Shown here piece by piece: positions 1 to 56,091 of a stretch of 64,000 nucleotides of DNA; within the stretch, counting starts at the first letter, position 1, and the number at the start of each line of letters is the position of its first letter. The notes below the pieces were generated by a model that saw only the letters and a list, made by a program, of their open reading frames with translations, was not told the origin of the DNA and made no database searches. The DNA is taken from positions 511,311 through 575,310 of the forward strand of contig QPGO01000034.1 of assembly GCA_008632985.1 (NCBI GenBank), in the 5' to 3' direction. Both the position numbers and the translations under genes were made by a program. This DNA comes from Psammoneis japonica. Its lineage: Eukaryota.

Positions 1-1311
1 TTGCTCCCCGCAAATGCATTGAGCGCATGGTTGACAACTGCACGTGGCTCTTTGGGGAGAAGCCCTGCACTGATGTGCTTTCACCCCTTGACAAGGGAGA
101 CCACCCTGAGCTTGACACTTCCTAATTACTCAAACTGGATGGCATCCACCCACTCCAATCCTTGATTGGTTCCCTGCAATGGGCCGCATCCCTTGGTCAC
201 ATTGACATCACTGCAGCTGTCATGTCTCTGTCTAGCTTGCATGCAGTGCCCCGCCAGGGCCGCCCAGACCGTGCCAAACGTGTCTGCAGATTCCTCTCCA
301 AGATGTGTCATGGTGCCCTTTGATTGCTCACCAAGGAGCCCAAATGTTCAGACCTTCCCAAGCCCGTGTGTGACTGGGCCCAGTCTGTGCATGGGGAGGT
401 AGAAGAGCTGCTCCCGCAAGATGCACCTGAGCCACTTGGCAAGTTCGTCACCACAACACACTGCGTCAATGCAAACTTGTTCCATTGCATGCTCACTGGA
501 TGCTCTGTCACCGGCATCCTCCATTTCCTCAACAAGTTTCTGGCTGATTGGTTCTCTAAGAAACAAGCAACAGTCAAGACTGCCATGTGTGGATCCGACA
601 AGTTTGTTGCCGCAAGGACGTGCATTGAGCAGATCATTGACCTGCGCATCACTTTACGTTGCCTTGGCATCCCCATTTGCAAAACATGTTGCATGTTTGG
701 GGACAACAAGTTGGTTGTGGACAGTGCTGCCATCCTGCACTCCAAGCCACACAAGCAACACACTGCCCTCTCATTCCATCATGTGTGTGAGGCAACTGCC
801 TCCAGTTTCCTTGAGTTTCATTTCATCAAAAGTTCCCACAACCCAGCTGACATCCTCAGCAAGCATTGGGGTCACTCCCAAGTCTGGAGCCTCCATCCTC
901 TAATGTTTTGGAACTTCGATCCCAAGGCTTTCAACCAATCTGACCTCAAATCTGTTGCTGTTGACCCCTCAAGCAAACTGGGGAGTGTCAGGATTTGAAC
1001 AAGATTTCAGTTCATCACACACAATTACATGCATGCTCTTAGTTCCGCGCGGGTCACGTGATGCAGTTTGCTTTCAAGCCACTCAGCTCACAAGAACAAT
1101 GACAGCAGTGCCGACATCACAACACCAGTCTTTTGGCTCCTGCAACAGTCTCTGCATGGAGACTCATCTGCCATTTGGACAGCAGCAAGGAGTTGTTGTT
1201 TTCTTCCACCCAGTCATCTTCAATTTCTGTCACATGACAGTCGTGAGACCTGTTTGTTCTTTGTGATGTCAGAAAAGAGCTCTGATGCATGTTGCTGAAA
1301 GATCCCTGACA
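1..1311 (+). mobile_element. Ty1/Copia (diatom CoDi-type) LTR retrotransposon, 3' part: decayed RT C-terminus/RNase H, polypurine tract and 3' LTR; truncated by the window start
   Basis: ORF 324-998 keeps Copia RNase H motifs (DWFSKKQATV-T...GS.FVAAR, MFGDNK.VV, NPADILSKHW). Purine tract GGGGAG at 980-985 directly precedes the LTR start TGTCAGG at 986. Confidence 0.92.
986..1311 (+). repeat. Copia 3' LTR (~326 bp) with inverted termini TGTCAGG...CCTGACA
   Basis: TG...CA ends with a 7-bp inverted repeat, immediately after the PPT. Confidence 0.8.
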
Positions 1312-2820
1312 ACTCAACATTCAGCACAAACATGAAGTGAGAGAGCCTCAAGACCCACACACATCAATTGTGCTGAAAGAACAACAAATTTGGAAGAGCA
1401 TGTTGTCAATGCAACCCATCCCAGTGCTGCATGGCTTGAGCCCATCAAAAACAGAAGTTGCTGAATGATTGCTGGCTGTGTTTCCTTGAGTTAAAGGCCT
1501 GGTGCAATTGCCAATGACCAAGACACCAAGCAAAATGAGCCTGCACCCAGTGCATCTCCAAGCAGCAGTGCAAAGTTTTGCATTTAGGACAGACAAACTC
1601 ATGTGGTGGTTGGCAAGCAACAAGACATCACTGTGCGTTGACCCACACTTGAGATGGGATGCTGCTGATTTGCATCAATTGATGGTGTCAACATGGACAA
1701 AAGACACAATGTGGTTGGAGACATGCTGTGTGTGGAGATTGAGAAACTTCAGCCAGTGTGGGTGGGATTGTGGAAGCAAAGACACTGCACCACCATGAAA
1801 AAGTTTTGTGACAAGAAAGAATTTTGTGACAAGACAGCAAGGCACTGGACATGCAGTTGGTGCCAAGGTGTGTGTCCACTGCCACACCAATGTTCCCCAC
1901 ACACATGATGACAAGAGTGTCATGGACAAAGCTGAGCTGTGCAGAATGAATGTGCACAAGACCAGCAAGTGCTGGCGTGTTTTTGGTTTGTGAATGCCAA
2001 ACTGCAGGGCAAGATGTTGTGTTGCCAAAACCACAAGAAAGATGACAAGTTTGAGAAGAGCTTGCTGGACCAGTGGGTTGCTGGATCTAGGAACAGGAAT
2101 CTTCAACTTGCACTGGACAGATGAGATGTTCTCATGCTGATGGACACGTCAAGAGCCAGCTGTCCTGCACATGGCATGGACAACAATGGGGTCTGTGGCC
2201 CACTTGTGAAGCTCAGTTTGAAAGACAATGAGTGTGACAAGGTCCATCATGGACTGGCTTGAGACAAGAGTTGGCTTGTCTTCAAAATGTGCACAAGCTG
2301 GCACTGTTTTTATTTTTGTTGCAACATCATCAAGGCAGGGTCCCACACAAAGTGGACTGGCGCAAAGATGGAGCTCTTTGTGTCAGATCCTGAGGTGGTT
2401 GACGGTTGGAGAGCATGGGTTGATTGGTTGGCCCTTGCAAGAGAAGCTCAGTGGAACAGAGTGTTGCTGTGCCTGCATTGCCAAGTTCATGGAGTGTGCT
2501 CAAGTTGTTGCAGATGCACTCAATGAGATGTTGGATTTTCCCAAAATGAAAGACAACAACAAGAACCAAGAAAGATGGCCAGCCGCGCTCTCGCTCCTCT
2601 CAGCACACAATCGTCGTGCTTTTCATCAGCATCACCAACTCCAGTCTTTCACTGTGGCACTCTGACCAGCACAAAATGCAGCACGACACAACAACTGATG
2701 AACAAAAAAGATCACTGCGCTTCACACATGATGGATGCAGGCAACCATCAAAGGCCAAAGGCAGTGAATCATCTTCTCACAGGTTTGAGAACAGGCATTG
2801 AGCATGCGATCTAAGCCACA
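1312..2820. mobile_element. Unidentified decayed repeat-derived sequence (probable host of the Copia insertion)
   Basis: Same TpA/CpG depletion as the Copia, with fragmented Cys/His-rich + strand ORFs. Composition returns to normal at ~2820. No family recognised. Confidence 0.5.
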
Positions 2821-3058
2821 TCTTTTACACAAACATAATATATATATTCAAAGTCTGCTATATAGATTGATATTATTTATCTTAGTGATTGGAGGTTGGT
2901 AAATATGCGGCGAATTTGCCGTTGATGGGTGCACCCAGCACTTTTTTTGAATTTTCTGCACAGACCCTATGTGTGATGAACCATGGCGATAACTGTACTC
3001 GCGAGGAGAATCAGTCACCTTTCAATCCAAGCTTGTGAACGTAGGACATTTACAACCC

Positions 3059-5179
3059 ATGTCTATATCCAATCACAAAAGCCATAAGCTTGACACTGTG
3101 AATAGGCGACCAAACGCAGCAACCAAGCCGATTTTGTGCATACTTCTGCTTTCCGTGGTTTTCTTTGTCGCGTGTACCATATCGTTCCACATCAGTGCAA
3201 AGTATCAACTGGAAACCGACCGCGTATATCTATCCCAACAAACCCATCAACACCCGGCTAGGGAGGAGTCTTTGTACGATTCGTCAAAAACGAGCAGCCA
3301 CGCAGCTAGGGAAGTATCTTGCCTTCAACAGAACTCTCCATCTTGGATAAATGGTAATAGAATTGGGAATTTGAGAGATCCGCTAATCAAAGATGATTTT
3401 GCAATGAAGATGATCCTTGATGACCCGCCTGTGTTGTCAATTGATGGGTCAATGTCAACTTTATTGCAACAAAGTCTGTGTCACAAGGATTCTCGATTTT
3501 TGAACTGGACTGATGATGGGAGCGGCGAGAAGAGTTTGCATTTCTGGGGTCTTCGTCTCATCTATTTGGCCTTTCACGTCCATCAACATCGTCCTGCACG
3601 AGCGGAAGCGACAAGACGACGGCTAAGCCAAGGAACCTGCAAGGAGGAATTAAAAGTGCACAGTGTTGGTAACTTTGACTATGAGTGTCGTGAAGCAAAG
3701 TTTCTCGTTGTTCCAATGGCACAGACAGGATTAGGAGCTGCGGTGAGGCTTGGAGCAGTAAACGCACTTATTGCTGGAGTAGCGACGAATCGTTCCGTTC
3801 TGTTTGTAAACAATGCGCCGTCAGGTCCGAGATTTTTGAAGAAGCCTGTAAGTATGGCATGTGTGATTCAGGTCTGGCACCACTACTACACTCATCTTTT
3901 CACGTTACATTCTTTTCAACGGTTGACAACTAATACTTCGTTTGCTCTGTTTTCTTCTGTCACCACTACTGCACTCATCTTTTCACGTTACATTTTCTTC
4001 GGCACAAAAAAAAAAAAAGTGGAACCATGCAAGCTGTGATCGCCGTGATTTTCAGTGTTTCTATCTTCCAATAAGTCCTTGCGTAACTACTGAGCAAGAG
4101 CTTACTGATGCGTACGTGTTGCAAAGGGGTGAGCAACGACGTGTGTTCAAGTTTGGAGACCTCCCCGAAGAGGCGAACGATAGAAGGGTGATTCTAGCCG
4201 ATTTTGCGAACAGACCACAGCGCGTGCCAGAAACCTTTCGTCCCAATATGCTAAAAGTCATATCAGGAATTATCGACAAACTAAGAGAGGCGAGCAAAGA
4301 CGACTCAAGAATATCCATGCTTCAACAAGCCGCGCAGTTGGTGCTAGAGACGGATCAAGAGGATCCGCTACGACCGTACTATTACAGTGGGGGCGTTTCT
4401 AAAGTACACCATGCAGCCGTCTTTTATACAATGAGGCCAAACCCGCACGCGGCCGAAAAGTTGGAAGAAGTCATGAGCAACCTTTTCCCTGACGACTTCA
4501 ATCCAGAGCTTGCATTTGGGCTACCCATTCGAGGTAAGAAGACCCTATTTCTTTTGCTTCCACCTAGTGTTCGTTCCGTTGTGTTCCGCGCGCTCTCACC
4601 TCCATTGCTCATGGTTATCGTTCAGCCTCTGATAAATGTCTGGTGGAAAGCGAATGTCTGTCTTTTGATCTATACATGAAGCTACTGGGACAGACATGGA
4701 TGAAGAATGATGCTCTGATAAAGTCGAGCACTGAAATGAGTGGAAGGAAGCCCCTTGGGAACATTGTGCTGACTAGCGAATCTCAAAGTATGCTTTCGGC
4801 CCGATTGGCGTACGAAACTAACACGACGTTGAAAGATTCTGTCCCATTTCCGTTTCGGTTTATCACAAACAAAGGTGACATTATGCAAGGAACTGGTTTG
4901 CCGTCTGAGTATAATACTCAAGCAAATGTTACTGCTGACGATATCATGCTTTCTACAGTGAGTTCCTTGAAGACCCAGCTCATGGCGAAGTTCACTGTGA
5001 GTAATTGTTGCTCGAATTTTCATCTACTTATTAACGATTTTTTAAGAGATGGTTGTGGTGCAGCTTCCGACAATATCGGTCAGTGTCTGCAGGAGAATGA
5101 AGACCCCAAATTCCGCGTTTGCTGTCAATGGAGCAAAACTGAAGAGTGCCTTGAAAAGAAGCAATCTGCGGCGCAATGA
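3059..5179 (+). CDS. Alpha-1,6-fucosyltransferase-like (GT23/FUT8-NodZ-like) type II membrane glycosyltransferase; exons ~3059-3847, 4020-4533, 4626-5179
   Basis: N-terminal TM helix (ILCILLLSVVFFVAC), GLGA..R motif, CFYLPISPC, spliced LPIR|ASDKC..ESEC motif. GT-AG introns 3848-4019 and 4534-4625 restore the frame. Confidence 0.7.
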
Positions 5180-5190
5180 GAATGAACCGA

Positions 5191-5811
5191 TCACTCAGAG
5201 TCACGCGGTACATTGTAAACGTAAGCATTCACGCCATTATGTCGACCTGGTACCGTAAAGGTATTCTGAAAGCCAGGTAGTTGAAAGCCAATGCTCACGA
5301 TCTGCAAACTAGTGGCAGAAACTACTTTACGCCGTTCCTGCAATGTGTCGCTGATTTGTTGCATCGCCTCCCGAAACATGTACACAATAATCACATTCGA
5401 CTCATCGACAAATGGCGAATTCCGTAGAAACACGAGTGCGTCTTCCTGAAAGAGCTGGATTCGTTGGCCGAACCCTTGCTCTCGAATCTTCTCGTGTGCG
5501 AGAGCGAGTCGCTCCGCATCCACATCGCACCCGACGCCGCGGCACTTTGTTTGTTCACATGCTTGAATTAACCACCTCCCGTCTCCGCATCCGACGTCCA
5601 ACAAAAGTGATTGCGATGTAAGCTTCAGCGCAGAGACAACATCTGAGATCAAATCGATCGGCGTTGGACTTATCGGTGCAAGTAACGTGAAAGAAGATGC
5701 ATCGTGGTGCCTTTGTTGCATTTCATGAAAGCGTGCCTTTGCTGCCACGAGCAATGCCTGGCGAACGCGTGCTCGCTTCTGCCTATCGACCGAAGTTTCT
5801 AACGACGCCAT
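5191..5811 (-). CDS. Class I SAM-dependent methyltransferase (FAM173/ANTKMT-like)
   Basis: SPTP motif, motif I LLDVGCGDGR, GVGCDVD, FQEDAL; intact 206-aa ORF. Confidence 0.8.
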   Translation of the reverse strand: MASLETSVDRQKRARVRQALLVAAKARFHEMQQRHHDASSFTLLAPISPTPIDLISDVVSALKLTSQSLLLDVGCGDGRWLIQACEQTKCRGVGCDVDAERLALAHEKIREQGFGQRIQLFQEDALVFLRNSPFVDESNVIIVYMFREAMQQISDTLQERRKVVSATSLQIVSIGFQLPGFQNTFTVPGRHNGVNAYVYNVPRDSE

Positions 5812-6068
5812 TTCGTCACGATTTCTTAGAGAGGTTTAGAACAATACAATGCGCCTTATATAGGACGAAAAGTCATGTAGGCTTATTTTTTAAGCGAACA
5901 GCGGCAATCTGAATCACACCATGGTTGTTGTTATGGTTTTTTGAGTTGGAGAAATGAGAAATAGAATTTGCGTACCGGGTGGCAGCAAGACGTCCCCATC
6001 ATACTGTTGCGTTGCGTTCAGTGTCTCCAAACAATGAAGAGTACGTTTAGACGATTATATTCGGTATC

Positions 6069-39365: not shown

Positions 39366-39369
39366 TTTT

Positions 39370-41200
39370 GGCTTGATCTAGCAATTGTGCAGGGATGGAT
39401 CATCAGCACCGTCTTCCCATGAAGGATGTCTGGCACCACTCTGAAATTAATGATGGGATTCGCGAGCCTCATGGGCAAATGTGGGTTGCCCTCACTGTCG
39501 TGACGACTCGTGACACTCATTCTTGCATTGACAAAACTGCACAATTCCAAGTGTGGCTTTTGCCATTTGTCAGCCAGTCATGCTGCCATCATTCGCAGGG
39601 TTGCCTTGGCCTCTTTGTCAAGCAGTCCATTGTTTCGTGATGCCATGAAAGCAGAAGGTGTGAAATGATGATGTTGCTCAAGGCATGGCTTGAGACACAT
39701 GCATTTTTTCTTTTTCTTTGTGGTCCAGTGGAACAATTTCTGGAGTTTCCTGGACAAGTGTGACTTGACATCCGTGTCAGCTGCTCTGAGGACATCCATG
39801 ATGGCATCAGCCATTCTTTCCCACACACCACAGACTGAGATGTCTCTGCATGATGGTTGCCATCTCTCAACTTGCATGAGTTTGTGGCCACACTCAGCAA
39901 ACCATGAGATTGATTCTTTTTGGCATTTGGACTTGCTGATGCAGGGGTTGATGACAGGGATGATGAGCTCCAAGGAAAGCTTCATTGCCTTGATCAATGT
40001 GGTCATTGAGCTTCTCACGAATCTCATCTTGTCATGAGATGCTGAGGAGCAGCCCACCCTTCTTGAATTGAAGGGCATGATGGGTGGAAAACTTGTGTCC
40101 ACACCCACCCCAGCACTTTGGCAGAACAGGGGGGTGCAACTGCACTGCAGTCAGCGATCATTGTGCAAAGAAGTTGAAATTGACCACTGAGTCAAAAGTC
40201 TCCCCATGAAGGGCAAGCAAATTCAATCTTCATGAACCCTTGTTGTCACTCTTTGCAACCACCCTTTCATGAGTTGGCCCATCTACAATTCACTGCAACT
40301 GAACATTTTGACATCTTTGCAAAGCTCTTGACAAGGGAATTCAGCACCATTCAGCACCAACAGGTGTGATGATCACCATGGCCATGTGCCAGTCTTGGTG
40401 CTGCTGAGCTTCCCAGCACAGCTCAGGCCATCACTTTGGACAAAGTTTTGAGAGAGCTGTTTTGAGTGTTTCCTTGTGCACTTGCACTTTCCTCAGCCAT
40501 TTCTCACCTCACTTCTCAAATCATGTTCTTGCAGCTGGCTAAGGCAAACTTTTTGTGTGTGCAGCCATCCAGAGTGATTTGATCTTGCAAGAGTGTGAGC
40601 ACTCACTTTGGTGCAGCTGGTGTGCACAGCAAGCTCCATCAGATGAGGAATGGACAGCACTGCAGACTTTTTTCAACAAGGCCATTCTCAGGCTGTCATC
40701 TGCCAGAGGGTTTTGCTGATCAGTGCAGGAAGAAATTGACATTTTGCTTTGACTGCATCTTCTGCTTTCTCAAACAATTTGTCACAGGCCTTGGCTGCTG
40801 CATGCATTGTGAGTGCTGCCACTCATGCTGAAGGGACTTTTGAAAACCAGCACAAGCAGTTTGCAGGTGCCAGTGAGTCAACATTTTGGCAAGCCTGCCA
40901 ACCCTCAAGGACTGTGCCTTGGGTGTTTCAACTGTGCACTGCTGCTGGTCTTGTGCTCCTGTTGCTCACACCAACATGATGCCTCTTCCTGGCTGGGGGC
41001 ATCTGTTGGGACAAAAAGAACATTTTTGTTGGAGTTGTGGGCAGGGCAGCACTCATGCTTGGGACCTTGGTCTTGGGATTTCATGACTTGCTGGCTGGCC
41101 ACACTTGGTTCTTGCCAATCCCCAACTCACCACATGGGCTGCAAACACATTTCCATTGCTGCACCAACCATTGCCATGTGTCAACTGGGTGCAAAAGCTG
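39370..41200 (-). mobile_element. Decayed CRE-clade non-LTR retrotransposon (RT C-terminus/thumb + restriction-like endonuclease)
   Basis: Minus-strand fragments: QGPKHECCP..NKNVL (cf. GP.YGY.P..KS.L), HLQTACAGFQKSLQHEWQH (cf. YPQTAYAG.QKSLQ.EWQ), KTGTW..LNGAE, DISVCGVWERMADAIMDV..DTDVKSH, CLEQHHHFTP, GLLDKEAKATL..LADKWQKPH..FVNARMS, IVRATHIC. Confidence 0.82.
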
Positions 41201-44200
41201 GAAAGTGAGCACAAAAACCACTGCTCACAGGAGTTCTTGTGAGTGAAAATTCACCATGTCATCAACAATCATCAATGCATCCTTCACTGCAATGTTGTCT
41301 GTCCTGCAAAGTCTGTCTTGTGGCACCCCAATGTTCCAACACACTCCTTTGCATGAGCCATCAATTGATTGACCATGCCGCCCAATGCCACTTTGACCTC
41401 TCCACCAATTCCCGTGGCACTCATCATCATCTGGTTCCACCAATGAACAATGACCATCATCATTGAGCAAAGGACAGTCTTTTTTGAATTGCCCAACCTT
41501 TTTGCATTTCCAGCATTGGATCTGCTTCTTCCTTTTTGCACAAAGCTTGTGCTCTCTGGTTTCCTCTGTGCAGGTCTTTCACTTTCTACCTCAGATTCAT
41601 GGCGCCACACCCCCTCTGCATGTTTTTCTGTGCAAGCTCTGGTGCAGATGTCACCTTTCTCTGATGGTGCAATGATGGTTCCCACCTGCCTGTTCAGACC
41701 ATTCTTTCTTCTGATGATGTGCCTTTGTTCCAAGATCATTGGCAATCTCATGCAGCAGAGATTGTTTGGTGTTGACCCCCTTTGGTCATTTGCTTGTCAC
41801 TCTTCTTGGCATTTTTCCGTCTTGTGTGCAAAATTTCTGCACAAATTTCAGTGCTGGAAACTCTGCATGTCCAGCAAGCCATTTCAGATGGACAACTTGC
41901 CAAACTGTCAACTGCTCTCTCTCCACACCTCTCAAGTGTTGAAGACCCCCCTTCCACCTGTTGTCAATTTAAGCTCCATGCTTCATGCAGTGAACAATCT
42001 TCTGTCATTGCTGCTCTCAGAAATTTGAATTTGAGACCAACTCAGTGCACATTGTCCTTTCCTTCTGTGTGCGGACCATTTCTCACAAGTTTCAGCAAAC
42101 TTTCTGTGTGTCTTGAAGGTCATTTCTCAGATGATCAACTTGCCAAACTGTCAACTGCTCTTGGTCCATGCCTCTCTGGTGTCTGTGACTCCCCTTCCAC
42201 CCATTGTCTGTTTGAGTTCTCTGCCCCATGTGGCAAACAGTCCTCTGTTGTTGCTGCTGCTGTGAGTTTGAATTCAAGACTGGCTCAGCATGAGTTGGTG
42301 GCCAATTTGTGCTCTGCTCTTTCTCATGTTGCAACCATTTCTAGACTGCCAGTTTTGCCTTTGCCACCAGATCCAGTCCCAAGGAGAAGACGTGATTGCA
42401 GTGTCAAGTGCTTTGATCTTGAAGTCTCATTTTGTTGGCCCTGCATTTGTTGCTTCCAGCTGTTTCTGGTGGGTGCCACAGCCTTGTGGCATCAATCTTG
42501 ACCAGCTGTTGTGCACCCCTGCTGCATCACATGATGTGATGTTCTGGGGCAGTGTGGGTTGGCTTGTTGCTGGAGCTGCAGGGTGGAAGTGCAGCAGCAC
42601 TTTAAATGCAGAATTTGGGTTTTGTTTTAACTGTGCAGGTTTTTCAAGACATGCCAACATTCCTTGGTGCCTTCCATTGGCAGTGCCGCTGACAACATGT
42701 TTCTTTCTTCCTTCCTTCTGGGTGTCACCAGCATCCTTCCTGGCCTGAACCAATTTTCTTTCTTGGCAATTTCTTCTAGGATGAGACTGCTGCACCAGGA
42801 CCCTTTTGCCACATTGGCAATGCTCATGAGCCAATCACAACAATCTTGAAGCCCTCTCCTTCATTTGGACAAATGAGCACCAACTGAGTCCAAGTGTCAA
42901 CTGCCTGGACATGTGCGCAAGCAGATGATTCTCTCTCACTTGCACCAAACAGGGTTGACTTGAAAATTTCCAATGGCGCCACCATGCCCCACTCCTTTGG
43001 GATGCTCTTGAGCTCTGTCACTCCTCCCTCAGGCTTTGTGATGGACAGATTTTGTGCACTGTCCCATGATTGTGTCAAACACCTTTGCCTTCTGCATTTT
43101 GTGGATCATGCCCTGTTTCACACAGTGTTGTGCTGTTTCTCCCAGACAGCCTTGTCCTTCTTCTCTGATGCAATGTCACCCCAATGGATGTCCTGGCTCC
43201 TCCAGTTTGTTCTCCTGCTCCAGAGACACCAGCACCTGCATCTCCAGCCTGAACATTCTCTTTTGTTTTTCTCATGGTCTTTGTGCAACCAACTGCTTGG
43301 TGACCCAACTCTGCAATGGCGCCATGCACCTGCTCCTTTGCTTGGATCTTCTGTGCTCTTTGCTTGGCTGTGTCCCATTGCCCACATTGTCCCAGCCCAA
43401 CACAACCTTGCCTCACCCTCTTTGCCTCAATGACATGGTCAACTTGCATTCACAACTCATGTTCAGTTGTGAGTCTTGGCTGTGCTCACTTTTCAGCTTC
43501 TGCACTCAGCCAACATGCATCAGAGAGGCAAAAAGGCTGCACAAATCACAGGCCATGTTCCCCTGCCTTCAAGTGGTGTGCACACTGCTTCACTTGTTGC
43601 GTTGACCCACCACTGACTGAATTTCACAGTTGTTTGTTGGTGTCTCGCCTTCTTTGTTTGTTTGCATGTGTCCTTGTTTGTCCTTTGCTCAATTGTTGTC
43701 CCACATCCAGAACGTGTCATTTTCCACATTCTGACTTTAACTCAACAATCAACAAGCCTGGCCAGCATGTGTTTGTGCATTTCCCAGCAACTGCACCAGT
43801 TTTCTTCTTGCTTCACTTGCGTTCAGTGACATTTCCAATGCCCGATTGAAACATGTGCATTGAAACATGTGCACTTGATGCAATCATGTTGTTTGTTGAC
43901 ACAATGTGTTGTGGTGGCAGCAAGAACAGCAATGCAATCACAAACGCACACTGTGCATTGAGTGAACCAACTTGCATTGAAAAAACTTCATCCGTTCTGT
44001 AACATTTCTGCAGGAATTTCACTGCATCAACTGTTGTTCACTGTGTCTGGACCAAAGTTGACAGGGGGGGATTTGTGCAGCCTTCATGGCACCTTTTTGT
44101 TGCAACAATGTGGCCAATTGCATCACCTCCACTTCTTCATCCCACCCAAGACAAGCCGGTTGACTCCACTGATGAGATGGTTCTGAAAACAGCAACAGCA

Positions 44201-47200
44201 GCATTCTTGATGCTCCATTGTGTGATGACCCAAGTGTGAGTGCTGCTGTTGGCATGCCATTAACATCTGTGGAGAAAGTGTGCATCCGTGCACTGTGGGT
44301 GCTCCCTTGAGCACTCTCTTGCTCATGCAGACATCAACAACAAAGAGGAAGAATCATCTGACTTCTTCTGGAGTGGTGCTGATGGTGGCACTGAAGTGTC
44401 CTCTGGTGATGACATGCACTCCATTGGTTCAGCAGATTCTGGCAGCACAGAACTGCTGCTGGAGGTCATTCCTCTTGCAAACAATGAGTTTGTCAAAGGT
44501 TTGCATGATGAGAGTGCCCATGCTGATGATGATGATGACAACAATGATGATGATGCCACCAAAACCAAGTCAGTCACTCCCAGAAAAACCAGTGCAGTGA
44601 AAAGATGCAGTGCGCCACTGCTGACTCTTTTTGCATTTCCCGGTTGTTTGTTGAGTTGCCAATCTCCTTTTTTCTTTTTTTGCAAGTCATCAAGATGGAT
44701 GGCTGTGTGACTGTGCTCACAAGTGGCAATTGTCAATGTTGCATTGCCAAACATTGATCTAAGAGGACAATGGAAATGCAACAGGCAAGGAAGGCCTCCC
44801 TTCCCAGTCTCAATTGGAGGCCCACCCCTTTCTTTCTGGCACTGCCTTGTTTGTGGTGCAATTCTAAGAATGGATTGTGTCACTTTTTTGAGCAAGCAAC
44901 CACTGTCAATGATGTCACATTTTTGTCACATGCTGCAGTGAGTTCTGCTTCCACCACTCATCTTTGTGCTGTCTTCCTGCTTTCAACATCCAACCCATGC
45001 ACCTGGTTGTTGTGCTCTTCCCACAATTCCCACCATCATTTCCAAATGGAGGATTCGATCTGCACAGTCCAGTCTGGGGGTGTTTGTTTTCTCCTTGACA
45101 CTGGTGCAGGAGTCCTGAGTCGTGGAGACATCTGGGCTGGAGCAAGTTCCACAGAGTGGAGAAGCAATGCTGAAATTTGATGCCACCCCATGTCTGTCTG
45201 AGCCTTCCACAAAGCTCAACATCTGCAATCAACATCCTCTTGACAAGCCACTTCATCATTGAACCATGTTTACAATGAAGAAAGCAAGAAGTCCCAAAGA
45301 CATGGCATCACATCAAGTTGATCACAATGCTTTTGGAGGCATTGTAAAGATTTGTGGCACAGACTCAGAGCTTTGCCATGTCCACAGTGGAGACTCCTCT
45401 TTTCCTCCCTTGCATTGAGTTCAAAAAAGGCAACACCCACCACTGGTGCAAATTGGTCTTTTCTCAATGCTCAAAACCAAAGATGTTTTTGTGGTTGCAG
45501 CAAAAAATCTTCTGCAAGACATCGGCACCAGCACAAAAGTTCAATCCGGCAACATGGTGAAGAACATGCTTAAGACAGGCCTGGGCACCATCAGGGACAT
45601 TGTCTCTGACAAGGCCCGTGGTGAAAAAAGCTGCCCATTGTTCTGAGCTTGTGGAAGAGCAAATGTGCAATGCATTTTCAAGGACATGCAAGAATCTCAA
45701 CCACCAGAAAATGAAGAATTTGGCAATCATCTGCTTGAGGGTTCATGACTTGATGTGCCGGCACCTCAAGCCAAAACAGAAAAAGAAAAGTTCACCTTTT
45801 CCACAAAAGTCCCATTTTTCCATGTGGGGCAGTCTGCCTGGGAATGGTCAGAAGAAGAACGGTTCTGGATCTGCCAAAGGCCAGTCTTTTGTCCAACCCT
45901 GCCAGTCCCTGACTTGAACTCCATTTCAAACTGTGCTGCACTGTTGTTGTTGTCATTGTTGTTGTTGTTGTTGTTGTTTGAAATGAGGATCCCTTGTGCC
46001 CTCCAAAAGAAAGAAGGATGTGGAACAGCCATCCCATCAACACTCTCATTGTCCCTCCACAGCCATCCCAACACCCCCCTCCTCATGCAACTTGTGCAGG
46101 ACCTGGATGGCAACAGTGGCAACATCTCCATTGCTGATGGCAAGTGCACCCCTGGAATCTGAGTTCATTGCTGAACAATGACCCCCATCTCCATTGCTTT
46201 GGAGGACTGGGAAACTCATTTCCCACAAGAGTGCCAACATGTCCCACCCCCGGCTTGCAAAAAATTGCCAAGGTCGCTCCTTGCATTCACGCATTTTGCA
46301 ATGGGGTCAACAAAGATGGCAACATCAACAAGGACAAGTTCAACCATGAGCTCATTCTGCATCACTCCCCATTGGATTTCTGCCTGCTCATGGACCTCTG
46401 CATTTCAACACATTCATTTGAGTCAGAGAGGCCACTTCTCAATCCAATGTTGCACTCTTGTGAGTTGAGCACTGTCCCTTCCCAAGCAACCAAGATCTCA
46501 GCCAGTCAAACCACACTCCATTCCAATGGCAAGCTGTTTGAAAAGCATTTTTCTGGGCTCAAAGTCCACTTTGGTGCACTGACCTGTTTTGTTTTGGAGC
46601 ATGGCACCAGCAATGAGAGGCATGACAAAAAATGTCCTGGAGGGCCGATGCACAATTGTTGAGTCAACTTGGTTGCAGTGGACAGAATTGTGTTGTTGGA
46701 GCCAATGGCAAAGCAGAGCTGGCACCACATCTCCTTTGCATGGCTTGCTTCAACAAATTCAAAATGAATGATGAGGAAGAATTTTCCCTCCAAGTGAAGG
46801 CCATGTCAGCTGATGCATTCAATTGCACACAGCTCTGCCAGGATGAGTGGCACATTGAATGTTTTGATTTGCCAACTTCTTGCAACAACAACAAGGAGCA
46901 GACACATAAAGTTTGGCCAACAAGTGCAGGAGGAACTTGGTGCTGAATGTGCTGGGAACAAGAATTGCATGATCCAGCTGAAGAACATGAGCCAAGGTGG
47001 CAGGACATGTGAGCATGAGGGCAACCAGGACTGCATTGGATGTCTCAGCTTGTTTGGGATGGACAAGGTTGGAGACTTTTGAAAATGTTGTCCAACAGCC
47101 ACCATGGCAAGGCAGGAAATTGCTGCATCAGCAAATTTGGAATGAGAGACCTCAAGGCAAAGGTTGGTGTTTTTGCTTGTGCCATTGACCACAACTGCAC

Positions 47201-50200
47201 CAGGTTCACAGGGAGTGCTCTGGTCCACTTTGTTTCTGCAAGGGTGATCTGTCCCATTGTCACCAAGAAAAGTTCTTCCTTGATGTGGAGTCTTTGGCTT
47301 TCTCTGGTCAAGACCCTGCTTGTGCACAACATTCATGATGACTTGGGTGTTTGTGGTTGTATGCAGCTGGCAATCATGGCAAGTTGTCAGACTGGCTTCA
47401 ACTGGCTCTTCTACATGGCCACCAGGAACTTGGACAAGCTGCGCGGAGCTTCAGACACTGCCACACTCATTTGTTTCCACAACGCCATTGAACTTTTTGG
47501 AAGAGCTGCTGGGGACATTGGAGCAACCCCTCATCACATGAACCCAAGTGGGCACAATTTCATCAATGTGCACTGCAATGATGCAAACAACAATGACAGT
47601 GGGGATGATGAAAGTGTTGGATCTGCTGCCAAGGACAGTGGCAAGAAGCACCACCACACCTGCACCAATGAATCCAGCTGCAATCCTCTTGGAAAGAGGC
47701 AATGCATCAAATCACCAAATGAGATGATTGCCAATGGTCAGTGTCAAGGGGTGAACTCAAAAATTTGGTTGTGAACCTGAGAATCAACAACATGACATTG
47801 GACGTCATTGCCCTGCCAGAGTGGATTGTGCAAAAACAGGCACTCAAGTGCAAAACTTCTGTCACACTCTCTTGCACCAGTTGAAGAAAACATCTGTGCA
47901 AAATGTTTGCTGGCTGGTCTTGTGAAACCAACATCACCAAGTTCCAGTGATGACAATTCTGCAAATGCTTGCCAGATGTGGCACAATCATTCTGGGACAC
48001 AAAGAAGATCTGTGGGACTCAGTTTGTCTGGCAACAAACCTTGGTGCTGCAAAGCAACTTGCTCACCTGATGAACAATTAAAGGGTGGAAGCATTGGAGA
48101 TCATTGTGCAAAATTTTGGAGCTGCCTGTCACAGCAACAACTGCAAGGAGTGTGTCACCTGTGACAGCCACAGAGACAGAATCAAAGATTTGACAAAGAA
48201 ACATTTGTCAAGAATCAACATCTCTTCTCTCCCTCATTGGTGCAGATGGCATTGCTGGCATTTAAAAACATGGGATGTGACACTGGGAGAAGACACCAAC
48301 TCTGCCAGAAAAGCCTGTGCCGATGAATCTTGGGCAGACAAGAAAGTTGATGTTGCTGCCAATTCAATTGACAACAAAGACAAAAACCGACAGCACCAAT
48401 GTTGAGGCTGGTGGGATTGGGGACACTCCCTCAGATGATTTCATTTTTGACAGTGCTTTGACACAGGAAAAAGGAGGAGACCAAATGGATGCAAGCAATG
48501 ACAAGGCACTGATTTGCTGATCTGCCAACCAAAGACACCATTGTCAACATCCCCCCCCCCCCCCAGGAGGTGCAAATTTGACAGTGAGTTGGATGGAGCA
48601 AATGAAGCAATCCTTTGAAAACCTTCCAGGATCAAGGTCAAGAAGGTGCTTTTCTTGTGCATGACACAGACCAAAGACATTGACGTTGCACCACAATGTG
48701 CTGGATGGTGCCAATGATCATTTTTTGTTTTGTCATGACACCAAGCTGCAATCCAGCGCAACTGGGCTGCCAGCATGGCAGCAATTGTTGTGCAACTGTG
48801 GCCACTCCAGGCACAAAGATTGCAAATTTTGCACAGCATCTCTCAGCAATGGACATAAAGAACAACACCTGAGCTGCAACAAGTGTGGCCCCAACTTTCT
48901 AAATCAAATGCTGAGCAAGTTTGGAGGCAATTTTGTGGAAATCAACATGGACTTTTTCTGGTTGCAAAAGGGCTGGTTGAGCAATCAACTCAGAAAAAGC
49001 TTCTCTTCAGCAAGATGACACCAGATCCAGGGGTCGCAATGAAAAAGAAGATGGAGCCTTCTTTGTGCCTTTTAACATTGAGACATTTGCTGGTTGCACC
49101 AAACACAAAAACACAATGCAGTTCTTCATTTTGTCACCCCCACAACTGGAAACAAAAGTTTTGCTTCACAAGCCACGCTGTTGCAGTTGCTTGGATGAAT
49201 GGTTGTGTCACAAGAAACTGGGGCTGGACTGCCAATGCCAGGTGGAGAAGCACCTCACTGATGTCTTGCACCAGGAAATCAGGGAGTTCACCACAGAACA
49301 CATGTGTTCTTGGGCTGTTGAAGTGTGGGCTGGACCAAGGAGCAAGCCCCAGCAGGTCAACATTTGTCAACAAATTTTCTTAGGAAGAGGCAACACATGT
49401 GACAACAGTCATTGGTGTCTTTGCCAGCCAGAGACCAAAATGAGCAATCTGACCATTTGGTGAGATTCCTGGGTGCTGTCCCTGACAGGAACAGACAAAA
49501 CTTGGCCGTGACGGCATGACAAACAACAGTGTCACTCAAATGGGTCAAAACACCAAGAGTGCAGTGACGCACATCAAGGTCAACTTCCACTGTGCATTGC
49601 TGTGTTTCTGTTGCACATTTTCCCAAACTTTTTCCCAAATGAAGTTCCTTGTTCACCATGTTGGACAATGTGGATTTTCCTCTGAGGTTTCCTGACAAGC
49701 AAGACAATTGCACTCTTGCCCAGCTGATGGATGCAAGGCAAAAACTGCAGGAGGGTGAGTGGCACATCTGCCCAGCTGCTGAGAGCATCACATTTGCCAC
49801 CTCAGCAACTTTGGAACAACTCAAGATAAAATTGACACTCTTTTGCCCCATGAGGGAAACTGGCTGCATTGGTTGCCATCATGTTGAACAGAACCAACAA
49901 ATGTGCAATCACTGCGTTGGGCTGGCAGACCAACTGGGACACCACATTTGGGGAAGTTTCCCAATGTGCAAGCCATCACAACTTGTTGCTGCCAGTGCTT
50001 CATCAATGCCCACTTTTTTTGAGAAAGCAGAAGGATGGTGCATGGAGCTTGACATCAAAGACACTCCTTTTCAAGGAGAGGATGGACCCATGCACTTTCA
50101 AAGCCAAGGCCCCTTCAACATTGTTGACATGCCAACAGCTGACAAGAAGCTGCAACAAAAGAACAGATTGATGGCAAAGAGAAGCAATCTGAACATTGCT

Positions 50201-50600
50201 TGCAAAGGCCCTCATTGTCAACTGCACTCAGTTGATGTGTGGTGACTTGTGTGCTGCTTGGCTGTGTCCAGAGATGCACAACCAGCTGCAAGTTGTTGAC
50301 AACTTGCCACCAATCATGCAAAAAAAATCATCCATGATTTCCTTGAGGTTGTGGCAGTGCCTGCATCAATTCCAACTGACAAAAATCATTGACAATTTGC
50401 TGCCAATCATTCCTGAAGGAAAACATGGTGTGTTGGGGCCCAGTTTGTGTTTGTCAGCACAAGAAGCAAGACACACAGAAACCTCTGCTGAGTGATGCAA
50501 AACGGCCCAGCTCCATGTCAAACTCACAGTTCTTTACATGTTGTGTGGGAGCCACCTTGTCCCTGCCCAAAAGCTGCACTTGTGTCCTTTGCCATTGGAC
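41200..50600. pseudogene. Series of decayed transposon-cargo-like coding remnants (mostly + strand), families not securely identified
   Basis: Extreme TpA/CpG loss. Residual protein-like frames at 41782-42501, 44288-44620, 46144-47774 and 49065-50245. Confidence 0.5.
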
Positions 50601-50619
50601 TCGCCTGTCTGTTGTGCTG

Positions 50620-53100
50620 TCATCTCTCTTGCCCACTTGACAAAGACCTCAGCCCACTTGATTTGGGGGGCAAACTGCCATGACTGTGTGCTCTTTCCTT
50701 CCATTGGGTGGGAACATCCAAGAGGGGACAGGGTCTGAGCAATGTTTCATCTGAAACACAGAGGGCCACTCTTTGTGCAGGAGATGGCAATGTGATGCAT
50801 CGACAGATTGCCATTGCTCTGAAATTCTTGTTGGCAATGTGTGAACAGCCCAGTGTCTTCATGGGTTGACTGACAGCTGCAAGCTTGCAATCAACAGAGT
50901 GAACAATGGCCTTCACATCACCAGTCTCCTCCTTGCAAATTCCAGTGGCTCTTGCCGGGTGCATGTCTTGTTGGAGTTGCCGTCCATGTCAAAGTTGACT
51001 GCAGCCCAATCACACCGGGTGATTGAAAAGTGTGTGCAGCTGGGCATGATTTTTCCCAGTGTTGCTGTCAATGGCAGAGTTGCCACAACAAATTGTGGTG
51101 TCCATGCATGACACAACTCTCTTTGTTCCAAAAACAAGGGCTTTGTTGTCAAGCTGCATTTCCTCTTGGGAAGAAGCAGACAGGAACAGCGACAATGCAT
51201 GTGACAATGAAGAGCACATTCAAAAGGAAGCAAAGCTGGGCATTTTGGAAAGCATCAAGCCAGCACACCCATCACCCCTTCATCAGTTTTTTTTCACTGG
51301 GCAGGAAAACTGACATGGGTTGTTGAGGTCTTGCACAACATTGGCAGATTCGGGTGTGGGTGACTCCACTTTTTTCTTTGCCATGGTCTTTCTCAACCTG
51401 TCATGGACACACTTCTCAATGTTGGTCTCAACCTCTTTGCAAAGCAGGCCTTGGCACCTGTCCTGTGGGGCGAGACATGCAAGGGATTTGATGCATTCAT
51501 GGGAGGAGCATGAGATGGATTGCTTGCCATTGATGGCCTTCAGAATCTTTCACCACAATTCAACAAACAGCTGGTCCATCTGGAAATCATCAAAGTCGTC
51601 TTGCAACAAAAAGCCAAAGCCATGCAACTGGAGGTTCTTGAAGACAAGTTGGATTGCAGAAGGTTTTTGGTCAAATGCATCACTTTTGTGTCATGGTCTG
51701 TGGTGCAGGCAAATCTTTCTTTGAAGGGAAAGGCACTGGGTGGCAAGGCTGCTTTTTTTTTTTGTAGAAGATTCCTCAGGTGCTCCACCATTGGGAGTGT
51801 TGGATGGTCTTTTCCTTTTCTGTCTGCACCAAGCAGAAGCTGTTTGATGGGACTGCTTTTTCCCAGAGGTTGTGTTGCCCGATTGGCTGCCATTGGACCC
51901 TGCACAAGGAGAGAGCACATTGGCTGACATTGCCCACCCAAGTTTGCCATCCTTCTCCTGGGTGAGTGTTTCTGAAGATGCTTCAAATCCTTCAACAAAA
52001 AAAAGTGTGTCATGGTGTGCCTGCATGTTGGTGGACAAATCATGTGGTGCTGCATCATCCTTGAGGGAGTCGCCATTTCATTGGTGCAACCAAACAAACC
52101 ACCTCCACATCTGTGCTTGGCATGAAACCCAAATGACACCAGAAGAAAGAGTGTTCACGAGCTTTCCTCTTCACAATGAGGGTGCAGAACAGCCAGGGTT
52201 CAAGTGGATGTTGTTGACAGGAATTGGTTCCTGTCTGGTCTGTGCACAAGCCTGTTGGAAGAAGGAGGTCCTTCTCTGGATCAAAATCTTTGGGGAGATT
52301 GTTGCAAGTGTCTGTTTCTCTGAGGCCACAGTCATCTGTGGGAACAAACTTGTGGAGCTGTTCCTGCATTGATTTGTTGACATTGAGATTGTGATGGTCT
52401 TTGAAAAGGGAGCAAGCAAGCAATTCCCTCAACATGTCCTTCATTTGGAAACGAGCCACTTGGTGCCCACAAATGATGCATGTGTCTGGCTTTGGCATGT
52501 GCACCTTCTTGTGAAGGCTCCTCACCAACTTTTGTGCCAAAAAGCTTTGGATGCATCAAATTCACTCTTCTTGTAGAGCCATCACAGCAGGGTGAGCAGT
52601 GAATCATAAAACCCTCCAGCAGCACCAGAGTTGTCACACAGTGTGATCAGCTGAAGAGAAGCTTCCTCAGCCAACAAAAAGCTGCACCCAAGCAGAGAGG
52701 ATGACTGTTCCTTGCCAACATCAGAGGCCTCCACTGGCAAAACATCATCTTCATTGATGTCACATTTGTGGGTGGAGTTGGTGCTGGGAAACATCTCAAA
52801 AAGAGACAGGTTGTGCCCTTGTTGTCTTCATTGGAGTGAGAATGTTGGCATCATTGGAGTCATCATCTTGTTCATCAGATGCACCACTCTTGAAATCAAA
52901 GTTGGCAGCAGCAAACTTGACATTGCGTCCCGCCATTGCACCAGGCAGGGGATGAAAGGGAGGGAAGAGCTGAAGTGCCGGTGGGGGAACTGATGCTGGA
53001 GAGATGTGTTGACAGTGTTTCCAGAGGTGCCAGCAGAGTTTGAGCAAGATTGGCAGGAGGATGACAGGAAGGGCTCCTTGTCCCATTGATGATGAGCAAG
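50620..53100 (-). mobile_element. Decayed, rearranged Plavaka-type (CMC/CACTA-related) transposase gene
   Basis: N-part LQLITLCDNSGAAGGFYDSLL; core DLLLPTGLCTDQTG..QQHPLEPWLFC..RKAREHSFFWCHLGFMP (cf. LPI.LY.D.T..YPLEP..W..LG.IP); C-part RCDWAAVNF..HPAR..AIVH. An unrelated fragment interrupts at ~51300-51900. Confidence 0.72.
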
Positions 53101-53559
53101 CAACACAGTGGCTTGGGACAGTGTGCCTGGATCACTGGCTGCAACATTGACACAACTGATTTGGTTTTGGGCTTGTGGCAGAAATGGCGGGCATGAACCA
53201 TGTGCAAGGATCAAATTGCAGGGGGGGGAACCAAGATTGATGCAAACAAAGGGAAATTTGTTGGAAGCAAGCAAACTGATTGATTTCAAATTGGACTGTT
53301 GAGCAAGCACGGGTGCTGATTGAGAAAGCACATGTCTCAAAGCTGGACAGACACAAATGCCAGAGAAAATGGAATTTGAAAATTTTGGACATTGAGGCAT
53401 TGTTCAGTCACAAGCAATTGCGTTGTTTTTGAAACTCAGGTGAGTGAATTCAAATTGCATTGGCAAACATCAGAGAATGCATGAAATCAATGACAGCCAA
53501 ATGCTCAAATCAGAAAATTTGCAAATGCAGAAATTCCAGCTTGCAATGGCAAACAGCCA

Positions 53560-55035
53560 GGCAACAATGCATGCATGACCTGTGCTGCTGAGAGGAGCAC
53601 TGGGAAAACAAACCACACAAAAAATGGCATGGAGACATGGCAACCATGGTGCCCCCAGAGGCAGCAGATCAATCCAGCCATTTGGATGAACAATGACAAG
53701 AAGGTGGGCAGAGACATGGTCAAGGTGAAAGACCATGTCAAAGAAAAGGTGTTTCTCAGTGTCACAATTGTGTTTGATGCAAGGCAGCCAGAGGAAACTG
53801 GCATGCTGTGCAGAGACTGTACCCAGAATTGTGCACCAATGCTGATGGATGGAATGCTTGTGGAGCTTCCAGAGGCTGAACAGAAAACACACCCAAATGA
53901 AACAAAACAGGTTGCAGCCACCAGAGTTGGCAGGCAATGAAGCAATCCAATGCATGTCAGGCCCAGCAAGACAGATTTCACAGCAAGTTCTGTTGCTGAG
54001 GATTGTTGTGAATGAGGAAAAAACAAACCAACATTGGCGTTGTGTTGTTGCTGACAATGCAGTGCTTTGTGCATGCTGCAGCAAGAACAATTGCATGTTG
54101 TCTTTGCCAGAACATTTCCAGGTCAACAGTCAAATCCACCATTGCACGGACAGCACTCTGCAGCCACTTGTTGCAACCGGTCATGGGAGAAATTTGTTGG
54201 AAGAAGAGCCTCTCCGAAAACACAAGGTTGGGCACATTGTGTGCCAAGGCATTTGCCCACATGCTCTAGAAATTTTTTTGTTGCGTGGCTTGCAGTGCAG
54301 CACAAGAGCAAGAACAAGGACACAGCTGTTTGATGACAGACTGCAATGTGGGGGGTCAATGACCAAGAAAACCCCACTGGAGGAAGGGAAGACTTGTGTG
54401 AAATTCTGATGCTGCCAGATGTTGCCATTGCCAAGCCAGAGGATGCAAACAGATCAAGCACATTTTTGAAATTTTTGAAAAAGACCCTGAAGAGCCCACA
54501 GAGCAAGGAATGCACAAGGAGACAGCAAACAAGTCTAAGGAGGTGTGGGAGAAGTCCCTCAAGAGCTGCAATGAATGCATCAAGAAGGTGAGAACAGAGC
54601 AAATGACACACAGGAGCAGCCAGTTTTGATGGAGGTCATGACCAAGCTGGAAAGCAACAAAAACCTGCCAGACAAAAGGAGCATGGGGTGCTGAGAAGAG
54701 AAAGTGCATGAGACGCCCAAAGTGCTTCATCGCAAGAGACTCCAAGAATGGAGCTGAAGAAGGTGCATCCAGGAGATGACACAAGGTGCCTGGGAAGTGC
54801 AAAGGATGGTTGCTGAGGGCAAACAAGTTCTTTGAGCAGCTGGTGAGGGAAATGAAACAAGACATTGCAAGCAAACAATTGGGCCAATGGGAAGATTTGC
54901 ACAAGAAGACAGTGGCTGAGCACAAAGAGAAAGAGGAGGAAAAGAATGATGAGTCAGGGGACAAAAGCAACTGCATGGTGAGCTGTGCCAAGACACATGA
55001 ACTGGAGGAGTTGATGCGAGTTTGGCAGAGATGAC
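53560..55035 (+). pseudogene. Decayed accessory gene divergent from the Plavaka transposase
   Basis: Fragments VKDHVKEKVF, LLQPVMGEICWKK..AKAFAH..NFFVAWL (cf. EAFA..LEN..W), KCKGWLLRANKFFEQLV (cf. GWS..F..L). I recall these motifs from diatom TE-linked hypothetical proteins. Confidence 0.55.
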
Positions 55036-56091
55036 AAAAAAGCAGCACCCACATTGTCACAAATGACATTGCATGCAAAGTGCACAAAGCAGCACCCACA
55101 TTGTTGCAAACAAATGATGCTGCAAAGTGAGCCCAAACTGTCAAACTAAATTCGAGCATGCTGCTGCCAAATGGCAATTTGGGAAACCAGTCAACCAGTC
55201 AACTGCAACTGGGTTGCAACAAACATGTTGGTTTGCACATCATTGATGTGAACCCACGGACATTTGTTGGAGGTGCAGGACATCCATTTGTTTGGGCCTA
55301 GGACAAATCTGACTGATTCAGTCACAAATAAATTGATGTGCTTGCACTCACACATGTTGGGGCAGACTGAGGCATTGTCGTCCGCAGATGGGGCAGCGGC
55401 AACGGCAATGGCGGCAATTGTGGAGAGGAGGTGTGTTGGCCTTTGCAGCCCATGTGGTGTGGCAAGTTCAGTGATCAGTGAGACCAAGCATGTGCAAGCT
55501 GGTGAGCCATGAAATCTTAACACAGAAGCTAAAAAGGCTGGCTGGGAAGTCATCAAGAGTCCAAAGGTGCAGCTCGAGTCAGACAGTGGATTGCAGCAAA
55601 CAAGCTGCTGGCTCGATGAAGGCAAAGAAACAGTCTCTGCGGCTGTGAGGAAACTGTTGAGGGTCTGCTGAAGTGGGGAGTCGAGCATTGGTCCCAGTCC
55701 GTGTGCCACCATGCCTCTGGTGGATCGCCTTGAACGACATCTTCCTTGCTGCTCCTAAAAAGGGAAGCGACCGTTCCGAAGCGTCATGTCATTTTACTGC
55801 ATGCCGTGAAAGAAAAGGTGGCAACGACACTAATAAACATGCATAGCTTACAGACTTGAATATAAGTTTATATTGGGTCATCTCAGTTTCGTGACTGTTC
55901 GTTTGGCCGTCGTCGCGTGGATGTGCGAGAGCACGGGTGAGGGAGTGAGGGAACGGACAACACACGCAATTTCACCACAACCCAGCCACAACACACAGCG
56001 TGAGAAGGGTGCTGTTGTTGAAGTGAGTCACGTCGTTTCAACCTATTAAGAGACTTTCGTTTCAAAGCCTTTGCCTTGATTACTGTGCATC

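Follow-up and report, generated by a model that had tools for sequence, protein, structure and literature searches.

Separable losses of TpA and CpG in sharply bounded tracts that include a Ty1/Copia pol pseudogene

Introduction

To our knowledge, few sequence-specific mutators that are aimed at mobile DNA are known outside repeat-induced point mutation (RIP) of fungi and APOBEC/ADAR of animals. RIP changes CpA to TpA and thereby enriches TA. It is dinucleotide-specific, acts on both strands, riddles mobile DNA with missense and stop codons, and forms sharp tracts that can reach the flanks. The transposons of diatoms are methylated. RIP of Neurospora and other ascomycetes (PMC2621366, PMC7296669) and the decay of methyl-CpG in silenced transposons by deamination of 5-methylcytosine (PMC7140373) are used for comparison in this study.

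Another system is that of Bigelowiella natans, in which hypermutation restricted to TpA strikes the integrated DNA of giant viruses and virophages (Mettrop et al., bioRxiv 10.64898/2026.01.13.699255). In the accessible text of this preprint, mutation rates are measured, TpA is the only target, adenine deamination is proposed, and neither diatoms nor CpG are mentioned. In the open-access literature and bioRxiv, this 2026 preprint on a chlorarachniophyte is the single report found of an A:T-to-G:C mutator at TpA and the sole description found of TpA erasure, and no description for a diatom was found there.

This study concerns a window, by which we mean the whole stretch of 64,000 nucleotides that was analysed. 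The initial annotation described at its left end a Copia RNase H in which every conserved Tyr is converted, and ascribed this to a context-specific process rather than to general ageing.

Results

Identification of the Copia fragment

The left end of the window contains the following features.

3..998, + strand: Ty1/Copia pol pseudogene, C-terminal ~330 codons (end of RVT_2 plus RNase H), from homology and fold
324..998, + strand: Tyr-free ORF of 224 amino acids, from translation
999..1235 (right limit approximate), + strand: high-copy 3' end of the element, with a probable polypurine tract and 3' LTR, from contig depth

The pseudogene at 3-998 is in frame 3, is clipped by the start of the window, and is collinear with the C-terminus of the Ty1/Copia polyprotein. 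It contains two in-frame stops, TAA at 123-125 and TGA at 321-323, in addition to the natural stop at 996-998. A search of 5.8 billion proteins gives 458 homologues at E≤1e-3, the best with 66% identity and the E values reaching down to 1.5e-79. PF07727 (RVT_2) is present in most of these 458 proteins, and the closest relatives of the fragment are RVT_2-bearing polyproteins of ~1,850-1,950 amino acids. When compared with the window by tblastn, residues 1541-1850 of the protein P0001, in which RVT_2 occupies 1338-1554, correspond to 3-932, and the matches of four full-length Copia proteins are confined to 3-935. One Copia-type polyprotein of 1886 amino acids, P0030, is 62% identical to the ORF, and its source names a Bacteroidota MAG, probably because a eukaryotic contig was wrongly binned with bacterial DNA.

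The 224-residue ORF and the two upstream frame pieces give nothing meaningful when compared with Pfam, and a sequence search of the PDB with the ORF profile gives no match. The AlphaFold model of the ORF (pLDDT 74.9, pTM 0.72, built on a 30-sequence alignment) was compared with the PDB by Foldseek. The top match is RNase HI 3aly_A (E 2.9e-5, TMt 0.72), the top four matches are all RNase HI/H1 or RNase H-domain chains, and below them stand the RNase H domains of foamy-virus, Ty3 and HIV RT. The label of Copia RNase H is correct, as judged from the homology and this predicted fold.

Asp, present in 120 of 120 homologues, is replaced by Asn at 468, and Glu, likewise present in 120 of 120, by Lys at 576. 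We take these invariant acidic residues to be the catalytic ones of RNase H. The fragment does not present an open frame with intact conserved acidic residues. The high-copy segment stops near 1235, and a unique contig of 2714 bases begins at 1205. Self-BLAST detects no LTR pair within the window, which holds the 3' side of the element only.

Changes of conserved residues

The 224-residue ORF contains no Tyr, as had been noted, and the same stretch in the relatives contains 3.0-6.2% Tyr. Cys amounts to 5.4% in the ORF against 0.5-2.0% in the relatives, and Arg to 1.8% against 3.0-7.7%. An earlier hand count of 7 TA and 19 CG in 1-960 is exact. The observed/expected (o/e) ratios in 1-998 are 0.12 for TA, 0.29 for CG, 1.85 for TG and 1.66 for CA; host 1-kb bins contain 23-64 TA each.

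All six codon changes quoted in the initial annotation hold, at columns that are 80-100% conserved among 120 homologues. Tyr is replaced by His at 390 (CAT; Tyr in 117 of the 120) and at 873 (CAC; 111), and by Cys at 462 (TGC; Tyr in 96 and Phe in 22), at 588 (TGT; 114) and at 660 (TGC; 116). The codon at 747 is CCA for Pro where 119 homologues have Leu, that at 585 is ATG for Met where 118 have Thr, and that at 468, with Asn, is AAT. At least 80% of the homologues have Tyr at 13 columns, ten of which are covered by the window, where the residues are C, C, L, F, C, H, C, C, C and H. The claim that every conserved Tyr is converted is therefore correct for the eight columns with Cys or His, but one column has Leu (CTC at 153) and one has Phe (TTC at 291). 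Fifteen conserved Arg columns are covered, and nine of them are changed, three to His, three to Cys, and one each to Gln, a stop and Leu.

The loss of the Tyr codons (TAY to TGY for Cys or CAY for His) would follow from a nearly complete erasure of TpA. CpG-type changes account for the stop codon at 321 (TGA), for D>N at 468 and for E>K at 576. Active relatives with the same Cys, His and Pro residues are not found among 120 database relatives; the carriers of most such residues that were examined, P0048 and P0004, are themselves Tyr-free, hypermutated copies. These two proteins are predicted from TA-erased DNA.

Substitution spectrum and dinucleotide context

In the first of two tests, 196 columns with at least 80% consensus were used, and the ancestral codon was chosen to be the one most favourable to context. 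The window differs at 49 of them. Single TA- or CG-context transitions account for 28 of these 49 differences (11 and 17, respectively), and the remainder consists of 2 other transitions, 13 transversions and 6 multi-step changes. In the second test, the ORF was codon-aligned with 76 distinct relatives, whose DNA was taken from metagenome contigs, and each sequence was compared with the nucleotide consensus of the others (leave-one-out), so that no choice of ancestral codon is involved. The window shows 44 differences at 336 conserved sites, which are 9 of TA-type, 11 of CG-type, 13 other transitions and 11 transversions. The corresponding medians of the 76 relatives are 24 differences in total, 1 of TA-type, 1 of CG-type, 10 other transitions and 11 transversions. 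This result shows that the excess in the window lies wholly in the TA and CG contexts and that the rest represents lineage divergence, because the other classes are at the level of the relatives. None of seven conserved TA dinucleotides is kept in the window (five are changed to TG and two to CA), the median of the relatives being 86% kept. Conserved TG is kept at 13 of 16 sites and conserved CA at 13 of 13 in the window.

The highest DNA identity of the window to any of 80 metagenome loci is 69%, and the polarity of the changes is read from the consensus of these distant relatives and from the best 40 of 160 variable places among the same-sample copies described below. The direction proposed previously, TA to TG and TA to CA on both strands, is confirmed by a ratio of TA>TG to TA>CA of 5:4 in the leave-one-out test or 7:4 in the codon columns. 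The process is context-specific rather than general ageing, as had been proposed, because 9 TA-type and 11 CG-type changes stand against medians of 1 and 1 with the other classes at background. Classified by dinucleotide context against the 76 environmental relatives, the spectrum is not flat. CpG-type changes, which had been mentioned as occurring alongside, are present, but they are no side note, amounting to 11 against 9 in the leave-one-out test and to 17 against 11 in the codon columns. The statement that other substitutions are few holds after lineage divergence is subtracted, but 21 of the 49 differences at conserved columns are other transitions, transversions or multi-step changes.

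Limits of the tracts

The dinucleotide profile of the window defines the following features. No strand is assigned to them, except for the duplication.

1..2811: left tract with TA erased, made up of the Copia fragment and ~1.6 kb of low-copy DNA, with 13 TA in 2810 bases
2584..2811: left edge zone with 0 TA and normal CG (8 in 228 bases), from change points
39449..55756: 16-kb TA-erased block with a CG-poor core at 39510-55379, from dinucleotide profile and change points
55379..55755: right edge zone of the block with 2 TA and normal CG (12 in 377 bases), from change points
41800..42295, + strand: tandem duplication, 72% identity by self-BLAST, copies differing by CA<->TG swaps

The tract edges were determined as maximum-likelihood change points, which are at 2812, 39449 and 55756 for TA and at 2584, 39510 and 55379 for CG. 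The TA-poor zone overhangs the CG-poor zone at three of three edges, by 228, 61 and 377 bases, and the overhang zones hold 0, 0 and 2 TA and 8, 7 and 12 CG, respectively. Per kb, the o/e ratios in the tracts are 0.01-0.12 for TA, 0.03-0.3 for CG and near 1.9 for TG and CA. Those of the 16-kb block are 0.01-0.06 for TA, 0.03-0.15 for CG and 1.5-2.1 for TG/CA, with 1-4 TA and 2-8 CG per kb. The DNA between the tracts has o/e ratios of ~0.5-0.8 for TA and ~1 for CG and bears host genes (UCH, kinases, Coq4, AMP-binding, Arf, Sec1 and others). Wherever an organism is named for a relative of the Sec1 gene, it is a diatom, and the best identity is 63%.

The initial annotation had tied the process to the Copia element. 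This has to be abandoned, because the same signature fills both 1-2811 and 39449-55756. The left tract passes the high-copy element by ~1.6 kb into DNA of 1-2.5x single-copy depth. The signature is a property of the tracts and not of the Copia element. The 16-kb block has no similarity to the four Copia proteins by tblastn, and self-BLAST detects none between the left tract and the block. None of 111 ORFs of at least 80 amino acids (101 in 39300-55900 and 10 in 999-2900) matches Pfam at E≤0.01. The block contains no recognisable gene, and the long ORFs in all six of its frames are spurious, since TAA and TAG are missing.

The two copies of the duplication at 41800-42295 differ by 85 mismatches. 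Of these, 63 are transitions, 28 of which form 14 adjacent CA<->TG double differences. These swaps indicate that one ancestral TA or CG was resolved on opposite strands in the two copies. The totals of TG and CA are balanced, 317:335 in the left tract and 1837:1799 in the block. The order of TG and CA along both tracts, examined for processivity, is random (runs z -0.45 and +1.13), and there is thus no sign of same-strand runs at saturation.

The left tract is directly followed on its right by a TA-rich stretch with a short (TA)n run at 2812-2904. At 39252-39365, ~85 bases outside the left edge of the block, there is a 58-base direct tandem repeat of 98% identity, and two tandem copies of ~230 bases, 87% identical, are present at 63217-63678 in TA-normal host DNA. 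Because the TA-rich stretch at 2812-2904 adjoins a sharp tract edge, the mutator would appear to stop within tens of bases.

TA sites that survive in the tracts

In 1-2810 and 39450-55300 together, 48 TA dinucleotides survive, 28 of which are flanked as Y-TA-R, 18 are mixed and 2 are R-TA-Y. The corresponding fractions of host TA are 19%, 50% and 31% (chi-square p 6e-12 against the tracts), and those of the flanks of the tracts' own TG/CA are 24%, 52% and 24% (p 7e-8 against the surviving TA). The bias to Y-TA-R agrees in both tracts. It is unconfirmed in the partly mutated relatives, where p is 0.19 for the locus L015 and 0.07 for L032, and L031 offers only 3 sites, so that this bias is an observation on the present window alone. 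The main text of the preprint of Mettrop et al. (10.64898/2026.01.13.699255) contains, in its accessible part, nothing on the wider context of TpA.

Copies of the fragment in the same sample

Of three sequencing runs found for a single sample, two contain the stretch or part of it, and no RNA run was found to contain it. The contigs of one run (X1) were used as same-sample evidence, and pieces at least 85% alike were placed on the window. On 1-~1400, 2429 pieces are at least 85% alike, and 860 are at least 95% alike. The summed contig depth on this region, which is not a copy number, is 3,800-117,000 (15,000-117,000 within 1001-1400), against 63-68 for the single-copy DNA to its right; it is 68-165, or 1-2.5x single-copy, in 1401-2800. 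The Copia family is therefore very abundant, its summed contig depth being far above the single-copy level.

Transitions make up 140 of 160 variable places among the same-sample copies, and 71 of them are C>T or G>A. The dinucleotide context was read from the best 40 of these 160 places, taken with the strongest disagreement first. Among these 40, the window has TG/CA where other copies have CG at 17 places, among them 321 (CGA in the others) and the sites of the changes D>N (468), E>K (576) and R>C (501 and 786); the reverse type, CG in the window and CA in the others, occurs once. At two places, 1177 and 748, the latter part of the codon in which Leu became Pro, TG/CA in the window corresponds to TA in the others, and at one place (656) the window has TA and the others TG. 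Six more represent three CA<->TG double differences, one of which is at 873-874 in a Tyr codon that reads His in the window and Cys in most other copies. The remaining ones are 8 other transitions and 5 transversions. For six of the eight Tyr codons that became Cys or His, the same 40 of 160 places show no alternative shared by most other copies.

This comparison would miss sites at which the window agrees with approximately half of the copies, because the places of strongest disagreement dominate the best 40 of 160. Restriction to contigs at least 85% alike also favours kin that are already mutated. Part of the TA-derived states may be inherited, because most of the differences among the best 40 are of CpG-type and six of eight Tyr codons are without a majority alternative. 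Thus, some of these states may come from an already mutated, later duplicated copy rather than from change in place.

Separation of TA loss from CG loss in environmental relatives

The RNase H region has a TA o/e ratio of 0.45-1.12 in 77 of 80 metagenome loci, and the three outliers have 0.00 (L031), 0.24 (L015) and 0.30 (L032). Over its whole length of 2766 bases, L031 has a TA o/e ratio of 0.02 and a CG o/e ratio of 0.44. Many related loci have CG o/e ratios of 0.11-0.25 with normal TA. At the protein level, eight of the 13 Tyr columns hold Cys or His in P0004, in which a single Arg change is of CpG type and two further Arg columns hold Lys and Ala; Tyr is intact in P0054, in which six Arg are changed; and P0048 has both the Tyr- and Arg-type changes. 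The Copia fragment in the window keeps 19 CG and only 7 TA in 1-960. The two losses are separable. The offset edges, together with relatives that show either loss alone, argue for TpA erasure and CpG decay as distinct, though co-located, processes.

The process exists in other organisms or populations, since environmental contigs hold TA-erased Copia copies, complete in L031 and partial in L015 and L032. Hypermutated copies can be found in protein databases because Tyr becomes Cys or His, and P0048, P0004 and L031 were found through this read-out.

Discussion

Proposed mechanism and alternatives

The signature of the tracts is probably the result of mutation in place of silenced DNA, in which A-to-G change at TpA is combined with methyl-CpG decay; this explanation is drawn from the sequence. 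As part of it, the fragment would be a dead member of a Ty1/Copia family that is very abundant in a diatom-like genome, which we consider a fairly likely origin. The copy may have died and come to lie in transcriptionally silent DNA, where two context-specific transition processes would then act in place on double-stranded DNA. One of them would change TpA to TpG or CpA, by A-to-G on either strand, and run near completion; its chemistry would most simply be the conversion of adenine to inosine by a DNA-acting deaminase. The other would change CpG to TpG or CpA, most simply by deamination of 5-methylcytosine, and would be less complete in the fragment; its outcomes would be D>N, E>K, the stop codon TGA at 321, and the replacement of Arg by Cys, His or Gln. 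Both may be targeted by a silent-chromatin or repeat state. A mark of this kind, and not the sequence of the element, is the likely target, because the sharp-edged tracts exclude the neighbouring housekeeping genes. The adenosine deaminases of tRNA act on A34, which follows a nearly invariant U33. By analogy, a TadA/ADAT-like origin of the enzyme would fit the TpA rule.

It is improbable that one machinery, for example a deaminase that accepts both the A of TpA and the C or 5mC of CpG, causes both losses. The TA and CG signatures share tracts almost exactly and have the same products, TG and CA, and reports that ADAT2-type enzymes deaminate A as well as C in DNA are cited in the accessible text of the Bigelowiella preprint. 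However, the change points for TA and CG are 61-377 bases apart at three edges, 19 CG but 7 TA are kept in the Copia fragment, L031 and P0004 are TA-erased with much CG kept, other relatives are CG-depleted with normal TA, and the main text of the preprint, in its accessible part, is silent on CpG. An equally unlikely possibility is that most Tyr-to-Cys/His states were inherited from a hypermutated source copy whose later multiplication took place by trans-mobilisation or through segmental duplications in heterochromatin, with the CpG changes alone being private. The best 40 of 160 differences hold 17 private CpG-type but only 2 private TA-type changes, and 860 of 2429 placed pieces are at least 95% alike, as such multiplication would predict. 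However, independent resolutions of TA may be hidden by the restriction to pieces at least 85% alike and by the places of strongest disagreement, and the 71 C>T or G>A changes among the 160 variable places are enough for most ancestral TA sites. The codon at 873-874, with Cys in other copies and His here, and the 14 opposite resolutions in the duplicated pair at 41800-42295 also speak against inheritance. Inheritance would in any case alter the timing, but not the nature, of the process.

Editing of RNA, in which ADAR-like A-to-I and C-to-U changes of a transcript or cDNA are fixed by reverse transcription, is very unlikely. Retroelements have an RNA stage, but ADAR is a metazoan family, and editing of the plus strand predicts TA>TG only, whereas TA>CA is nearly as common (5:4 and 7:4). 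A>G is not confined to the transcribed strand within the element. ADAR prefers U before the edited A, according to the discussion of Mettrop et al. in its accessible part, which would agree with editing at TpA; however, the tract goes ~1.6 kb past the element, the 16-kb block is without retroelement signal, and the tandem duplicates show opposite resolutions. Systematic base-calling or polishing errors at modified bases of methylated DNA are still less probable. Modified bases cause systematic errors on some platforms, and the DNA that carries the signature is probably methylated, but over 1205-6000 the X1 contigs, possibly the very data from which the assembly was made, show 0 differences from the window at an even depth of 63-68, and the 2714-base contig among them (depth 68) is identical to 1205-3918 with 0 differences. 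TA-erased relatives are present in other assemblies (L031, L015, P0048 and P0004), and CA<->TG swaps between copies are not expected from errors. It is hardly credible that a pseudogene simply aged neutrally in a genome already low in TA. The TA o/e ratio of the host is just ~0.55, but the transitions outside these contexts and the transversions are at the level of intact relatives, the tract edges are sharp within tens of bases beside the TA-rich stretch at 2812-2904, and the TA o/e ratio of 0.01-0.12 is far below the 0.45-1.12 of 77 of 80 relatives.

Mutation of silenced DNA in place by two processes leads to a broader and more tentative proposal. In diatoms, silenced mobile DNA and the DNA next to it may possibly lose TpA through a chromatin-targeted mutator of DNA adenine ("reverse RIP"). 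This mutator would differ in mechanism from CpG methylation decay, would reach slightly further than it, and would erase R-TA-Y while Y-TA-R resists. If this is true, the reading of repeat age and composition in diatom genomes would change, and an enzyme, if responsible, would be a natural double-stranded-DNA adenine editor.

Comparison with known systems

Diatom Ty1/Copia elements go by the name CoDi, which we take to be that of Maumus et al. 2009. The fragment resembles them in that RVT_2-bearing polyproteins are its closest relatives and the RNase H fold is common to both. It differs from them in that this copy is without Tyr, has two in-frame stops, and carries Asn and Lys at two invariant acidic positions.

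The signature shares with RIP the dinucleotide-specific transitions on both strands, the sharp tracts, and mobile DNA ridden with missense and stop codons. However, chemistry and product are opposite: TA is destroyed and CA/TG doubled here (o/e ~1.9), and, in place of C>T at CpA with TpA enrichment, the tracts have a TA o/e ratio of 0.01-0.12. Methyl-CpG decay accounts for the change of CG to TG/CA, with a CG o/e ratio of 0.03-0.3 in the tracts, and is common among the relatives (down to 0.11), but it cannot explain why TA, the more completely lost of the two dinucleotides here, is gone.

The hypermutation of Bigelowiella, as far as the accessible text of the preprint describes it, is similar in that TpA is changed to TpG or CpA on either strand, windows poor in TA and rich in TG+CA are clustered, and the target is foreign or mobile DNA. 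In the present window as well, TA depletion with TG+CA enrichment occurs in clusters, and A>G and T>C occur at TpA on either strand. The two systems differ in that the host here is a diatom-like stramenopile and not a chlorarachniophyte, and in that the target here is a retrotransposon, low-copy DNA and a block without recognisable gene, whereas the accessible text of the preprint describes viral insertions. The TA o/e ratio of 0.01-0.12 here is near saturation, whereas that given there for its viral region is 0.45. Strong CpG loss is coupled to TA loss here, and the spectrum is not near-exclusive to TpA (11 CG-type against 9 TA-type changes). The window adds TpA and CpG footprints that are separable, a tract that is not bounded by the element, and survivors biased to Y-TA-R. 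If "reverse RIP" is true, it would, together with the Bigelowiella system, make A-to-G editing of DNA a genome defence across distant algal lineages.
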